From Candidatus Micrarchaeota archaeon (GTDB lineage: Archaea; B1Sed10-29; B47-G15): 64,000 nt of DNA. This document shows, one piece after another, positions 17,034 to 21,997 of this stretch. Made by a program: the position numbers and the translations under genes. The notes below the pieces were generated by a model, which saw only the letters and a program-made list of their open reading frames with translations, was not told the origin of the DNA and made no database searches. The DNA is taken from the NCBI GenBank assembly GCA_003660975.1, contig QMVG01000003.1, positions 1-64,000 of the forward strand, written 5' to 3'. Each line of letters begins with the position of its first letter. Within the stretch, counting starts at the first letter, position 1.

Positions 17034-18023
17034 TTATGACCCAATACTTATAACCGCCAACACAGCAAACAAAGCTTGGAATGCTATTAATATCAAGCTT
17101 AATTGCCATTCCTTTGGTCTAAATAATTTCATTACTATGTGCGTTAAAGAGTATACTTTTCCATCATAGTGAAGTCTACCTTTTTTATCAGGTTTTCCGA
17201 AGTTCTGTGCTTTAAATTTAGACCTTGCCTTCAGGAAGAATTCTATTATCTGTGGCATTACAGCTATCACCGCGACCTTTTCAAGGCTTGAAGTTATAGC
17301 AGCAGCTGCGTAGACTGCTGCCATTGAGTAAGTTCCAACATCTCCAGGGAAAACCTTTGCAGGGTACCAGTTATAATATAAAAAGCCAATGGCTGCCCCA
17401 ATAAGAGACACAAGCAGAATAATTGGTGTCAGGTTATTTGGTGAAGTAATAACTGTCGCTGTTAATAAAGCCGTAGAGGCAATTATAACAGTGCCTGCTT
17501 CCAAACCATTGTGACCTGCCAGCATGTTGAACAGATTACTGCACGCCATGATTCCTATTGGAACTAAAACAAGGGAATACCATATTCCAAATTGAACCTC
17601 TCCCAAGAGTGGAACACCGACCTTACTTATTCCTGCACTTATTGCCACAAGAGGCAGGGACGCAAGGCCGGGAAGTAAAACCCTTGTTATTTTTCTTATT
17701 TTGAAGATGTCCGTGAAAAACGCCATAATGGAAATCATAAGAACTACCAATAAAGAAGCAAACAGTGTCTTTAAGTGTATTTCTGGGATGAACTTTATAG
17801 CAAATAATACACCTGCAGTGAAACCCCCTACTATGCCCAAACCACCAATCCTTGGAACAAGAACTTTTTTTGGATTTGCAAAATCCGGAACAAGAAAGCC
17901 CCTATCCCAATCTTTGTAAGGAAACTGCCTTACTTTTCTTATTACATACTTTGTTCCGATAACAGCTGAAATTAAGCTTACGAAAAACACCGCCACATAC
18001 AACAGCCAGGACATCTCACTCAC
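17034..18023 (-). CDS. aglH: UDP-GlcNAc:dolichyl-phosphate GlcNAc-1-phosphate transferase (AglH/Alg7, MraY-like)
   Basis: VPRIGG, NLFNMLAGHNGLEAG and YNWYPAKVFPGDVG motifs typical of the GPT/Alg7 subfamily. Confidence 0.88.
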   Translation of the reverse strand: MSEMSWLLYVAVFFVSLISAVIGTKYVIRKVRQFPYKDWDRGFLVPDFANPKKVLVPRIGGLGIVGGFTAGVLFAIKFIPEIHLKTLFASLLVVLMISIMAFFTDIFKIRKITRVLLPGLASLPLVAISAGISKVGVPLLGEVQFGIWYSLVLVPIGIMACSNLFNMLAGHNGLEAGTVIIASTALLTATVITSPNNLTPIILLVSLIGAAIGFLYYNWYPAKVFPGDVGTYSMAAVYAAAAITSSLEKVAVIAVMPQIIEFFLKARSKFKAQNFGKPDKKGRLHYDGKVYSLTHIVMKLFRPKEWQLSLILIAFQALFAVLAVISIGS

Positions 18024-20355
18024 CTAAGACATAATGTCCCTTTGTCCATTCACTATAGTTTTGGGGGTCTGGAATTCCTGTCCAGTTTACCTGGTATATT
18101 ACATTCCAGCCGTTATCAAATACTAATTTCACATGCTTAAGGTTAGGGTCCTTGAAGAATAGACGCTCTAAGAACGCATACAGAACAGGGGAATTAGGGT
18201 CAAACTGTGGATTTCTCCCACATTGCAATGCTGTTAAGAATATAGATTTTCTTCCTGCTGACGTCTCCAATGCGAAGAGTCTAGCAGGTAAGCCTTGATT
18301 GTTTAGGTTTGTCCCTGGCCACCTGACTGATTTTAACTCTTGCCACTGCTCTTTTGTGAACGTGAAGCCAACAGGCTTGCCTTTGGAATCATAACCTATA
18401 AGGCACTTTACTTTATTATCTTCTTCCTTGCATCCTATTTCTTGCATACAACCAATGTAATTTGCAGCAATGTGTTCAAGAGCCCCAAGTTTGCCTCCAG
18501 TGCTGCCACCTATTATTTCCTTATCTATTAAGATATGTGTTGTTTTCAATGGTTTCAGTAATGACAATGATTCTATCTCAGCTTTTTCAAGGGCTTCAGG
18601 ACTGCTATCGCAATATATTTGCCGTGTGTTCATATCTGCACTACATGGTGTGGTGTGTGTAAACGATGAAGCAACAGTGTAAATAACATCCTTGCGTGAT
18701 TGAATGTTATCCATGGATACATGGATTTTGTCTCCGTTGTAATAATCCATCCAATGGCCATAGTCCCACCAAGAGGTTATGACACTACCTACTGGTACTG
18801 CGGATGAATTTAAAAATCTGAATGTCTCAAACCATTCAGGAGGAACATCATAACCCATTGTTTTGGCTTGGGGTATTATAAAGACAATATAAGAAAAGGC
18901 AATGGCAATTGCAATGATAAAGTAAGACAGTTTTACAAATCTTTTTATTTCCTCTTTATTCACTTTTGTAAGTACCCTATCAATTATTTTATAACCTTCT
19001 CCTATGAAAATCGCAGCCCCAAGTGTAACAGGCGCTGAAAGGAAGAATAAAGTTATTGATTTTTCAGTTAGGAAATACATGGAAAAGAGTATAAAAGCAA
19101 CTGAAAATATGTCCCATTCATACTTAAAGTCTTTCCTTATGAAAGGCATAATAAGTATTTTAGCAATTAGGCCCACAACAGCCATAAAAGCAAACCAGAT
19201 AAGATAACCAAAACTGTTTTGCAAGTATGATAATCTACCAAGGAAGTTTCCACCAGGAATGGGGTTCTGCTCTGCAATTGTTTGAACCATTCTTATTTCA
19301 AAATCCCTTTGGGGAGGTGATGGTGTTATTCTTATCCCGATAAATGAGAAGGGATATTCTAAGGCCTGTATGCCATAGAATATGAAGCTTGACAGGATAA
19401 GTAATGCAGATATTATTGATGCAATTCTTATTATGTCTCTTTTCAGTAATTTAATCTCTATAAAGAAAGCTTTGCCTTTTAACTCTATCAGTGAAGCAAG
19501 CAGTACTGCAAAGCCCAATATTATTATTGAAACGTTTAGGTTATCAGGCCGGCCATTGAACAGATATTGTAAAGGTCCTGAAAACATTGTTATGAAAGAG
19601 GCAATTATTAACCATTTTCTATAAGCCTTTTTTTCAGAGCTCTCTTTATAATAACCAAATTCCTTTAGTATATATTGGATCACGAAATATGCCACCACAG
19701 TTCCTGATAGAAGTAGGATGCCCACCTTATAGGATTGCCATGTCATTGCTAACCAGGTCCATGACACTAGATTGAGGACAACATATCTCCAATTTCTCTT
19801 TTTTATCGTCATTATAAATAACCATAATGAGGCAAAAAGTAAGCATAGTCCTAAGGCATCGTTTTCAGCGTGGCCGTAAATTGAGTAAAATAGATTGTTG
19901 CTTGAAGCAGCTAAGAACAAAGCAGCCATCAGTCCAGTAAATCTGCCATATATCTCCTTCGTGAACAAAAAGATAAATACAATTACAAGAGAGCCTGCAA
20001 TAACGACAAGCCATGACGTTGTCTTTGCAAATAAATTATAATTGAAACCTTCAACACCATTGAAAAGTGCGACTGTTTTGTAAACTAGAGCATTTAACCC
20101 CCACCAGCCAAGCTCATTTGCTCCCTGGAGCCTACCATATGGATACCATGTGCTGTTGTCTTTATATGGAAACCAACCGCCGTTAATGATATGTTTAGTC
20201 TGCCTTGCTGCGTAAAAAGAGTCAAAGCCATATATGTCTGGGAATTTATCAGCAGTAAATGTTCTTATGCCAAAAGAAAGCAGAAATATTGATAAGACTA
20301 TTAGTATGTCTATTTTATTTCTTCTGAAGTAAGCTTTAAATGACATACTCAACAC
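18016..20355 (-). CDS. aglB: Oligosaccharyltransferase AglB/STT3
   Basis: GFDSFY, multiple TM segments, TIAEQ and the WWDYG catalytic motif; exact start uncertain. Confidence 0.95.
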   Translation of the reverse strand: MLSMSFKAYFRRNKIDILIVLSIFLLSFGIRTFTADKFPDIYGFDSFYAARQTKHIINGGWFPYKDNSTWYPYGRLQGANELGWWGLNALVYKTVALFNGVEGFNYNLFAKTTSWLVVIAGSLVIVFIFLFTKEIYGRFTGLMAALFLAASSNNLFYSIYGHAENDALGLCLLFASLWLFIMTIKKRNWRYVVLNLVSWTWLAMTWQSYKVGILLLSGTVVAYFVIQYILKEFGYYKESSEKKAYRKWLIIASFITMFSGPLQYLFNGRPDNLNVSIIILGFAVLLASLIELKGKAFFIEIKLLKRDIIRIASIISALLILSSFIFYGIQALEYPFSFIGIRITPSPPQRDFEIRMVQTIAEQNPIPGGNFLGRLSYLQNSFGYLIWFAFMAVVGLIAKILIMPFIRKDFKYEWDIFSVAFILFSMYFLTEKSITLFFLSAPVTLGAAIFIGEGYKIIDRVLTKVNKEEIKRFVKLSYFIIAIAIAFSYIVFIIPQAKTMGYDVPPEWFETFRFLNSSAVPVGSVITSWWDYGHWMDYYNGDKIHVSMDNIQSRKDVIYTVASSFTHTTPCSADMNTRQIYCDSSPEALEKAEIESLSLLKPLKTTHILIDKEIIGGSTGGKLGALEHIAANYIGCMQEIGCKEEDNKVKCLIGYDSKGKPVGFTFTKEQWQELKSVRWPGTNLNNQGLPARLFALETSAGRKSIFLTALQCGRNPQFDPNSPVLYAFLERLFFKDPNLKHVKLVFDNGWNVIYQVNWTGIPDPQNYSEWTKGHYVLGE

Positions 20356-20529
20356 AGGACTTTACAAATTATCTCTATCAAAACGTGGCTTTCTATTGGT
20401 TGAATAATATGTAAGGTAAATTATTTAAAACTAAGGTATACTATTACTTATATATAACTGTAGCTGTTGCATAAATACAAGGAAAGATATAAAAAACACT
20501 GTTGAGAAAGTATTATTCTATTAAGCAAA

Positions 20530-20548
20530 GCGTAAATATTTATTATCA
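20530..20548 (+). promoter_or_regulatory. Putative BRE/TATA promoter of tRNA-Ile
   Basis: AT-rich TAAATATTTATTA ~30 nt upstream of the tRNA 5' end. Confidence 0.4.
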
Positions 20549-20573
20549 TTTGCTGTTATATATTCTCTGTCTT

Positions 20574-20683
20574 GGGCCCGTAGCTCAGCCAGGTCAGAGC
20601 GACGGTCTTATATGGCACGTTCTGACTCAGTCGGTTCTGTCTGAGAGAACCGTAGGTCGCTGGTTCGAATCCGGCCGGGCCCA
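20574..20683 (+). tRNA. tRNA-Ile(UAU) with a 35-nt intron at 37/38 (20613-20647)
   Basis: Acceptor GGGCCCG/CGGGCCC-A; D stem GCTC/GAGC; anticodon stem ACGGT/ACCGT; spliced loop CU-UAU-AA; T arm GCTGG-TTCGAAT-CCGGC; complete bulge-helix-bulge (CUUA pairs with UGAG, GGCA with UGUC). Confidence 0.93.
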
Positions 20684-20701
20684 TTAAACCCCGTGTTGCG
20701 T

Positions 20702-21361
20702 ATGAAAAGAAAAAAGCAGAAGAGAAACAGTAAAATAAAGACGCTGAAAACATGGAACAGAGATGTTGCTATTGTTACATTTGTTGCTGTTTTTATGCTT
20801 CTTTCATTAACAGCTTTCGTAGGTATTCTGGTGTCTGGCATTTCAGATAATATAAGCAGGCTCAACAACAGAATCGCTGAGCTTGAAGAAGCATCTCATG
20901 CAGTGCAAATACCTGAGGACCAGAGCTGCTCTCTCGTTTGCTCTATAAACAGGAACATCACAGTGGACGTTCAGGCAAGCACTCAACCGCTTTGTATAGG
21001 TGATAAAGTGAAAATACTTGCCTTTTACAGCCCCACCTGCCCTTTCTCAGAATCACAAAGGCCTGTGCTGGAATCTCTGAAAGAAGAGTATGGAGATTCA
21101 CTTAATATCACATATATCTGCAAGTACATCCACCAGGGGGATGACCAAGAGTGCAGTAAGCAGGCTGATAAGTTCGATTATGGTTACTCAGATGGGATTG
21201 CTTTGCAGAAGAAATACGGGGTTGAAAGGGACGGAACTCCAGTATTAATTTTTGACTGTGGCATAAAAAGGTTAGGCAGTTTGGCCCAGAGGTATGGGGC
21301 AGAGATGGAAAAAGAAGACCTTAAAAAGATAATTGATGAACTTCTCAAACTAAACTCATAA
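20702..21361 (+). CDS. Membrane-anchored thioredoxin/glutaredoxin-fold protein (CPFS)
   Basis: N-terminal TM, FYSPTCPFS, cis-Pro motif GTPVLIF. Confidence 0.7.
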   Translation: MKRKKQKRNSKIKTLKTWNRDVAIVTFVAVFMLLSLTAFVGILVSGISDNISRLNNRIAELEEASHAVQIPEDQSCSLVCSINRNITVDVQASTQPLCIGDKVKILAFYSPTCPFSESQRPVLESLKEEYGDSLNITYICKYIHQGDDQECSKQADKFDYGYSDGIALQKKYGVERDGTPVLIFDCGIKRLGSLAQRYGAEMEKEDLKKIIDELLKLNS

Positions 21362-21997
21362 GAGCCGGATTAATACTGCTATGTGGTCCTTATCAAAAGG
21401 CCTTAGATCTACTTTCTCCAATATTTCCACACCTGATGCCCTTATTTTTTCCAACTCTCTTTTAAATATTATCTTACTGTCTTCAGCCACATCTATGCTT
21501 CTTGCTTTTATCATTATCAGGCCATAGCCCCCTCTTTTTAAAAACTGTTTTACATTTTTGATAAATATCTCCGCTTGGTTTTTTTGAGACACATCTTGAT
21601 ACAAAAAATCAACACTATCAACTATATTTGCATATCTTTCAGGGTAATTGGCGTCCTCTAATATAGGAATGAGGTTTTTTCTCTCTTCACATAAAAAAAG
21701 CAGTTTTTCAAATGGTTTGCTGGCTATCTCAACACAATAAATAACACCGTTGACAGCAATATCGCTTATATGCGAAACAGTGGTTCCTTGCGCAGCTCCT
21801 AAGTAAAGTATGCTTGAGTTTTCGTTTATTGGAATTGTTTTTAGGCCTTTTAATATGGCAGCGGCCAGTTTTGACCTGAATGGGTCCCATTCCCTGAATT
21901 CTTCACTATCTATTTTTACTAATTTCTCGCCGTAGACGCTCTTTCCAGGTATTAAATTTTTAGTGTACAGTTTTTTTCCTTTTCTTATAATTCTCAT
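21356..21997 (-). CDS. flpA: Fibrillarin-like rRNA/tRNA 2'-O-methyltransferase
   Basis: VYGE, WDPFRSKLAAAI, LYLGAAQGTTVSHISD and IKARSID motifs. Confidence 0.97.
   Translation of the reverse strand: MRIIRKGKKLYTKNLIPGKSVYGEKLVKIDSEEFREWDPFRSKLAAAILKGLKTIPINENSSILYLGAAQGTTVSHISDIAVNGVIYCVEIASKPFEKLLFLCEERKNLIPILEDANYPERYANIVDSVDFLYQDVSQKNQAEIFIKNVKQFLKRGGYGLIMIKARSIDVAEDSKIIFKRELEKIRASGVEILEKVDLRPFDKDHIAVLIRLL

Follow-up and report, generated by a model that had tools for sequence, protein, structure and literature searches.

How does an archaeon read AUA, its commonest isoleucine (Ile) codon, when TiaS is found neither in its own genome nor in any of 31 genomes sampled from its phylum? The question is raised by an intron-bearing tRNA gene in a 64,000-nucleotide (nt) stretch of DNA, here called the window (positions 1–64000 of the 117-kb contig C3), from the genome of a Candidatus Micrarchaeota archaeon (GCA_003660975.1; G000 below). 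The assembly comprises 1.33 Mb in 130 contigs, has a guanine-plus-cytosine (GC) content of 43.5% and is 89.66% complete; the genomes of relatives span 0.3–1.2 Mb. Our analyses make it very likely that the gene is the one functional copy of tRNA-Ile(UAU) in a DPANN archaeon with a small genome, and that it serves as the lineage's standard AUA reader. With high confidence, we also conclude that this tRNA fills the place of tRNA-Ile2(CAU), such that the lineage reads AUA without agmatidine and TiaS.

Searching the window with the Rfam tRNA model (RF00005), we obtained a match at 20574–20683 (+) with 59.8 bits (E 2e-10; cut-off 29), the alignment of which prints a 36-nt insert within the anticodon loop. 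Based on ARAGORN with introns allowed, the same positions encode a tRNA-Ile(tat) with a 35-nt intron; run without the intron option, ARAGORN misses the gene and finds only the window's two intron-less tRNAs. The 5′ exon contains the acceptor strand GGGCCCG, the D arm, the anticodon stem and C32 U33 U34 A35 U36 A37, and the 3′ exon contains A38, the anticodon stem, the variable loop, the T arm, the acceptor strand and the discriminator A, while CCA is not encoded. The original prediction had described a complete bulge-helix-bulge (BHB) motif at position 37/38, the excision of which gives the loop CU-UAU-AA on an Ile-type acceptor with A73, and a U34 that faces a G in the helix CUUA:UGAG. Direct reading agrees on all of these points: the anticodon stem ACGGT/ACCGT stands above a motif in which two 3-nt bulges (TAT and AGA) flank a 4-bp central helix (CTTA/TGAG), followed by an outer helix (GGCA/TGTC), as in the strict helix-bulge-helix-bulge-helix (hBHBh′) form, and U34 (20609) lies opposite G20643. 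Cleavage after the second base of each bulge takes out 20613–20647 and leaves CT-TAT-AA.

In an alignment of 20 homologues, compensatory changes occur in 15 of the 23 predicted consensus pairs of the cloverleaf, and RNAalifold, given the full homologue alignment, returned the ordinary cloverleaf, showing that across the alignment as a whole it is the mature structure that has been conserved. Because 26 of 31 phylum genomes share the gene and because of these compensatory changes, we conclude from the sequences that 20574–20683 is a real tRNA gene with one spliceable intron, far beyond what chance would give. A check of base 20609 had also been proposed. Contigs of two sequencing runs (X1 and X2) span 20433–21000 with zero differences and have T at 20609, which supports U34 at the level of contigs; the runs may be the source samples and are then not independent, and contigs cannot reveal rare variants. 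Two contig joints that could have represented spliced forms were rejected, as other letters lie between their two sides and their loop is CAU, and we assign them to tRNAs of other organisms.

ATA is the commonest Ile codon of the genome (12594 of 24795 Ile codons, or 50.8%; 40.6 per 1000 codons), as counted over 894 ATG-started open reading frames (ORFs) of at least 150 amino acids with contigs above 53% GC excluded. Within the window, 945 of the 1669 Ile codons in long ORFs are ATA, in line with the earlier remark that this codon is common here. The TiaS domain (PF08489) has no match at E≤1 in this genome, and tblastn of four outgroup TiaS proteins against it gave a best E of 0.098. Likewise, PF08489 was found in none of the 31 genomes of the phylum set, 11 of which are at least 90% complete (a phylum-wide search gave the same 31); it was found in 5 of 10 outgroups, all five of at least 1.4 Mb, and in all 4 archaeal control genomes.

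The second half of the TiaS pathway is a tRNA-Ile2(CAU). Four of the 54 ARAGORN calls in the assembly are CAU tRNAs, and two of these lie on C109, one of three small contigs (C96, C108 and C109) with 54.5–64.8% GC. The tRNAs of C108 and C109 encode CCA in the bacterial manner, and C109 (64.8% GC) carries a tight array of six CCA-encoding tRNAs, among them the two CAU tRNAs. These three contigs are probably bacterial contaminants of the bin and could mislead counts of CAU tRNAs. The other two CAU tRNAs are an initiator (acceptor AGCGGGG) and a tRNA with the Met-type acceptor GCCGGCG. Thus, no Ile2-type CAU tRNA was found on the archaeal contigs (54 tRNAs called in an 89.66% complete genome), and none of seven in-phylum CAU loci inspected has a GGGCCC acceptor, all seven being Met-type. 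A loose pattern for CAU genes matched mostly by chance, and only its matches of the GAGCG type were taken further. Three TiaS-positive outgroups that we inspected (G032, G036 and G037) have two elongator-type CAU tRNAs each: one with the acceptor GGGCCC(G/A) and no intron (3 of 3), and one with the acceptor GCCGGGG and a 37/38 intron. We take the GGGCCC type to be Ile2, partly because it occurs in these three TiaS-bearing genomes and in 0 of 7 in-phylum loci. After splicing, the window tRNA shares 84% identity with the GGGCCC-type CAU tRNA of G036, compared with 73% for tRNA-Ile(GAU) and 72% for the elongator CAU tRNA of its own genome; by this comparison, it appears to derive from an Ile2-type tRNA. 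The acceptor GGGCCCG, the discriminator A and the overall similarity suggest Ile identity. Altogether, the two checks that had been proposed, for tiaS and for a second Ile2(CAU) tRNA, came out negative in the genome and on its archaeal contigs, respectively; with UAU encoded and ATA at half of all Ile codons, the claim of TiaS-independent AUA decoding stands.

To the original prediction, UAU was a rare anticodon restricted to a few archaeal lineages. A DNA search of 40 relatives gave 30 loci, of which 28 (L001–L028, in 28 genomes) are intron-bearing genes with the CTTATA loop. ARAGORN called 18 of these Ile(tat), mis-called 3 as Ser and missed 7 because additional introns interrupt their T or D loops. 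In total, tRNA-Ile(UAU) is present in 26 of the 31 phylum genomes and in the outgroups G038 and G040, and a pattern search added G034. The homologous introns are 23–112 nt long. Several of the relatives' genes hold second or third introns at non-canonical sites: in the T loop (L005, L010, L012, L018, L022 and L023), in the D loop (L027), or in the 5′ strand of the anticodon stem (L028, mis-called Ser by ARAGORN). A pattern scan for the D arm plus CTTATA, with one genome per species, gave at least 120 stretches, and 27 of the 80 titles listed are archaeal (Woese-, Pace-, Aenigmat-, Micr-, Nano- and Iainarchaeota, and a few labelled otherwise). UAU genes that have an archaeal-type anticodon stem and no intron include at least three labelled Micrarchaeota (L080, L094 and L107) as well as L132 and L136; as far as sequences tell, some lineages have either lost the intron or never acquired it. 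With 26 of 31 phylum genomes, a precedent in ARMAN genomes from 2011 (PMC3239211) and at least six DPANN groups, the description as rare is outdated: the gene is typical of its lineage and the standard AUA reader of the group, and the arrangement has already been published.

The remaining listed titles of the same scan are mostly Patescibacteria, Planctomycetota and Streptomyces. Among the matches listed, a tRNA-Ile-like D arm with a CTTATA loop is common in several bacterial groups, including Streptomyces (L049, L053 and L062, one of them plasmid-borne), Gemmataceae/Gemmatales (L050, L056 and L069) and many Patescibacteria, one of which (L066) has two copies 68 nt apart.

The genome encodes the machinery that such a gene would require. 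tRNA_int_endo (PF01974) has one match (G000:C3:70324-70584, 111.5 bits), in a single-unit splicing endonuclease ORF of 172 amino acids with the N-terminal (PF02778) and catalytic domains, which spans G000:C3:70093-70611 on the same contig as the tRNA gene. RtcB (PF01139) matches at C1:98138-99433 (546.8 bits), with a second match on C114 (593.5 bits). All introns of this genome are of the 37/38 type. We propose that the gene would be transcribed with its 35-nt intron, that the endonuclease would cut at the strict BHB motif, that RtcB would join the halves, that CCA would be added post-transcriptionally, and that isoleucyl-tRNA synthetase (IleRS) would charge the product, which would then read AUA. 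In this pathway, the UAU tRNA would stand in for the pair of tRNA-Ile2(CAU) and TiaS/agmatidine, neither of which was found in the lineage, and the switch to U34 would be older than the phylum.

Features of the tRNA-Ile(UAU) gene and its neighbours (positions in the window)
Feature	Position	Strand	Basis
5′ exon, tRNA positions 1–37	20574..20612	+	Rfam alignment, ARAGORN with introns, direct reading
Anticodon TAT (UAU); U34 is base 20609	20609..20611	+	ARAGORN, direct reading
35-nt intron, canonical 37/38 site, strict hBHBh′ bounds	20613..20647	+	ARAGORN, direct reading
3′ exon, tRNA positions 38–73	20648..20683	+	Rfam alignment, direct reading
BHB central helix, CTTA/TGAG	20607..20610 / 20642..20645	+	direct reading
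BHB 5′ bulge, TAT	20611..20613	+	direct reading
BHB outer helix, GGCA/TGTC	20614..20617 / 20638..20641	+	direct reading
BHB 3′ bulge, AGA	20646..20648	+	direct reading
G20643, G.U wobble partner of U34 in the BHB central helix	20643..20643	+	direct reading
Conserved element of the intron (CGTTCTGAC) with complementarity to the D-arm 3′ side	20618..20626	+	folding, homologue comparison
GGTCAGAGCG: D-loop 3′ part, D-stem 3′ strand and G26; the element's alternative partner as predicted by folding	20592..20601	+	folding
Membrane protein with STT3/AglB domains	18016..20355	-	
222-amino-acid ORF	20693..21361	+	
Fibrillarin gene	21356..21997	-	

Homologues differ in the length and sequence of the intron, except for the splice motif and a block close to the intron's 5′ end. 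All 25 in-phylum genes contain, starting at intron base 5, 6 or 7, six bases (CGYTCT or close to it) that are complementary at five or more positions to AGAGCG, an invariant sequence that comprises the 3′ strand of the D stem and G26. Pairing extends to the following three intron bases, whose partners are the three D-loop bases lying upstream, in 23, 22 and 19 of the 25 genes; when these three-base extensions were shuffled among the sequences, the observed total was reached in 0.1% of 5000 trials, a figure that ignores relatedness. At the pair adjoining A21, we counted C:G in 11 genes, U:A in 8, U:G in 4 and a mismatch in 2, and the families f2, f9 and f10 each hold both C:G and U:A, which suggests at least three independent double changes at the sequence level. 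A count of structure pairs was restricted to the 16 of 25 in-phylum sequences that share one register, as MAFFT left the element out of register where it starts at intron base 5 or 7. Among these 16, 86.9% of cells are paired compared with 21–48% when the partner is slid; in the shuffle control, the paired percentage was reached in 59 of 500 trials and the covariation score in 50 of 500. Both-sided changes occur in only one pair of this count, and, with most columns invariant, the control is not decisive.

The predicted minimum-energy fold of the window gene (−50.4 kcal/mol, z = −3.3) contains this pairing: 20592–20601 is paired with 20618–20627, the last base adding a tenth pair (G.U with 20592) to those of the element, and the anticodon lies within a small apical loop. 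Similarly, the minimum-energy folds of 15 of 20 full-length homologues hold at least six intron/D-arm pairs. Because the element abuts the outer BHB helix and its partner abuts the anticodon stem, the alternative hairpin and the cloverleaf with its BHB motif would exclude each other; in the folding model, the hairpin is incompatible with both the D stem and the BHB motif. The introns of this genome's Tyr, Glu and Leu tRNAs have no such complementarity to their own D arms, and among the other three introns of the genome CGYTCT is present only in the Trp precursor, the D arm of which lacks AGAGCG. Beyond the phylum, some genes have the element as well, such as one labelled Iainarchaeum; it was not found in the Woese- and Pacearchaeota introns examined, which hold a small hairpin with a GNNA loop instead. 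Six introns (L057, L081, L085, L096, L104 and L152), labelled Woesearchaeota or Nanoarchaeota except for one "bacterium" and one without a label, have a small hairpin of this kind, in which the loop is GTTA, GCTA or GTGA and changes in the stem compensate each other.

What might the element do? We speculate that the long hairpin between the 5′ exon and the intron, to which the first intron bases also contribute and which has the anticodon and the 5′ splice site in its apical loop, is a selected folding switch, which would delay splicing or present U34 to a modifying enzyme before the tRNA is released. We consider this model-based idea possible but tentative, and the other option, that the block is conserved for some different reason, somewhat the better bet. 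A box C/D or H/ACA guide within the intron was rejected, as 20613–20647 contains no C box and the intron is too short; in addition, a search of 20540–20720 against Rfam (E≤10) gave, besides the tRNA, only three matches at chance level. Our literature searches returned no description of intron/D-arm pairing of this kind.

Several observations weigh against the conclusion that the gene yields the lineage's working AUA reader. Splicing and the mature tRNA are predicted here from DNA. At 89.66% completeness, the absence of TiaS and Ile2 from one genome is not proof, and because this genome is incomplete, the argument from TiaS rests on its absence from all 31 phylum genomes. The assignment to Ile is inferred from the acceptor and overall similarity. 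Five phylum genomes (62–90% complete) gave no UAU gene, and a second pattern search of them was also empty. Moreover, the splice-competent form is not the predicted ground state, as the best constrained fold that keeps the cloverleaf and the BHB motif has −42.5 kcal/mol compared with −50.4 kcal/mol for the alternative. Finally, by analogy with Haloferax, a plain UAU tRNA would carry a cost in fidelity at AUG: according to the parts of PMC3895270 available to us, U34 mutants of Haloferax isoleucine tRNAs carry 5-cyanomethyluridine (cnm5U), bind AUA, AUG and AUU, and slow growth. Misreading of AUG may be avoided here by a modified U34 or by co-adaptation of the ribosome and IleRS; the tRNA-Ile(UAU) of Mycoplasma mobile is reported, as cited in PMC3895270, to have an unmodified U34.

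A related possibility is that modification explains the retention of the intron: U34, possibly along with U36, would be altered on the unspliced precursor, for instance to pseudouridine, thereby restricting reading to AUA. In support of this idea, 56 of the archaeal-type UAU genes that we parsed have a 37/38 intron with its 3′ end paired to positions 32–35, while the Ile2(CAU)-like outgroup genes have no intron. There is also a precedent in yeast, where Pus1 is described (in the portions of PMC4090602 at hand) as converting positions 34 and 36 to pseudouridine only while pre-tRNA-Ile(UAU) retains its intron, and the haloarchaeal data just mentioned indicate that an unprotected U34 misreads AUG. 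However, the archaeal UAU genes without an intron, of which at least three are labelled Micrarchaeota (L080, L094 and L107), argue that an intron-dependent step is not universal. Nor is any enzyme tied to such a step: the search for Elp3 returned a 44-amino-acid match to its C-terminal end (G000:C63:3607-3732, −), cut by the contig end, and an additional weak radical-SAM match, and pseudouridine synthases were not searched for. We consider precursor modification an unlikely reason for the intron.

We return to the reading of AUA by an encoded UAU anticodon and to how it arose. The original prediction proposed that the G opposite U34 is a leftover of C34, with which it would form a Watson-Crick pair, and that the C-to-U switch was thus recent enough to leave its mark on the intron. 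The 84% identity to the Ile2(CAU)-type tRNA of a TiaS-positive archaeon does make a C34 ancestor plausible at some depth. Nevertheless, among 56 distinct intron-bearing homologues, counted on the assumption of the standard geometry (4-bp helix, 3-nt bulges), U34 is invariant (56 of 56), whereas the base opposite it is A in 33 genes, G in 20, U in two and C in one; the 25 genes of the phylum divide into 13 with G, 10 with A and one each with U and C. Even within the window's own order the partner varies, being G in L001–L004 and A in L005–L007, and the partner of U33 also varies between A and G. G.U is, moreover, a standard pair in this helix. The G opposite U34 is therefore, by all appearances in these alignments, an ordinary wobble partner subject to the usual A/G drift. 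Two further observations speak against a trace of C34. The GGGCCC-type CAU genes, the likely ancestral type, are intron-less in all three outgroups inspected, giving no indication that the intron was once opposite a C; consistently, no in-phylum CAU gene inspected has an Ile-type acceptor. Furthermore, TiaS was found in none of the 31 phylum genomes, which dates the C-to-U switch to the origin of the phylum or earlier, and a neutral G would not have been kept for that long. We therefore regard a surviving trace of C34 as very improbable. What remains of the original proposal, that a C34-to-U34 change allowed TiaS to be bypassed, is plausible as a deep event, in which an ancestral Ile2(CAU) was replaced by a U34 tRNA that made TiaS dispensable; its supposed mark in the intron does not stand.

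Editing of U34 to C in the RNA, which would give a CAU-derived working anticodon, is a formal possibility that only the G partner prompted; nothing else favors it, a C34 would need the absent TiaS to read AUA, and U34 is conserved with A as its partner in most homologues, so that we give it almost no credence. We likewise dismiss as barely conceivable that the gene is a dead copy or stems from a contaminating contig, for although the assembly holds the probable contaminants C96, C108 and C109 with their bacterial-style tRNAs, this gene lies on a 117-kb contig together with the splicing endonuclease, has all stems intact and conserved with compensatory changes, and is the sole candidate AUA reader found in a genome in which ATA is the commonest Ile codon.

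The gene thus adds one genome to what is already in print, namely the reading of AUA by a UAU tRNA in DPANN archaea that have lost TiaS. The trait spans the sampled phylum set and AUA is the commonest Ile codon, making the question of how AUG is avoided acute rather than marginal. If the intron element is functional, it would represent a rare case of an archaeal tRNA intron that controls the folding or modification of its own tRNA.

As for the surroundings of the gene, a 779-amino-acid membrane protein with STT3/AglB oligosaccharyltransferase domains is encoded just upstream on the opposite strand, and a 222-amino-acid ORF without a Pfam match lies just downstream. A fibrillarin gene (285 bits) is also located near the tRNA gene. 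Outside the window, a tRNA-Thr(CGU) gene (G000:C4:52944-53060, +) has a 37/38 intron in which we noticed, by eye, the motifs ATGATGA and CTGA; resembling boxes C and D, they may mark an intron-borne methylation guide.

The closest known system is that of the ARMAN archaea, which belong to the same broad lineage (DPANN, Micrarchaeota). As far as the sections of Fujishima et al. 2011 (PMC3239211) available to us report, ARMAN-2, -4 and -5 have tRNA-Ile(UAU) and lack both tRNA-Ile(CAU) and TiaS, as is the case here, and the pre-tRNA-Ile(UAU) of Candidatus Micrarchaeum acidiphilum ARMAN-2 has a 37/38 intron with a strict hBHBh′ motif that is cut in vitro. In these sections, we found no mention of the intron/D-arm complementarity described here. 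The ARMAN-2 intron has 25 nt compared with 35 nt in the window gene, and the endonuclease of ARMAN-2 is the three-unit epsilon2 type, whereas that of the present genome is a single unit of 172 amino acids. The eukaryotic tRNA-Ile(UAU), as described in the portions of PMC4090602 at hand, is alike in that UAU reads AUA and in that a 37/38 intron is paired with the anticodon region. Unlike in eukaryotes, the splice sites here are set by the archaeal BHB motif and some archaeal homologues have no intron; moreover, while Pus1 forms pseudouridine 34 and 36 in the eukaryotic system, only the anatomy is seen to be shared here, from DNA. The tRNA-Ile(UAU) of M. mobile (PMC3575796, PMC3895270) resembles the window tRNA in having UAU without a C34-modifying enzyme; it is bacterial and intron-less, and its U34 is reported as unmodified. 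Lastly, surveys of complete genomes, as far as the available parts of PMC6000648 and PMC8450103 go, list a UAU tRNA-Ile only for Nanoarchaeum and Korarchaeum. The tRNA-Ile3(UAU) of Nanoarchaeum equitans and Candidatus Korarchaeum cryptofilum is alike in that UAU replaces Ile2(CAU), and the Korarchaeum gene, like the window gene, also bears an intron (PMC8450103, PMC6000648). These archaea belong to other phyla and the trait was treated in those sources as confined to two genomes, whereas here it is found in 26 of 31 genomes of a single phylum.

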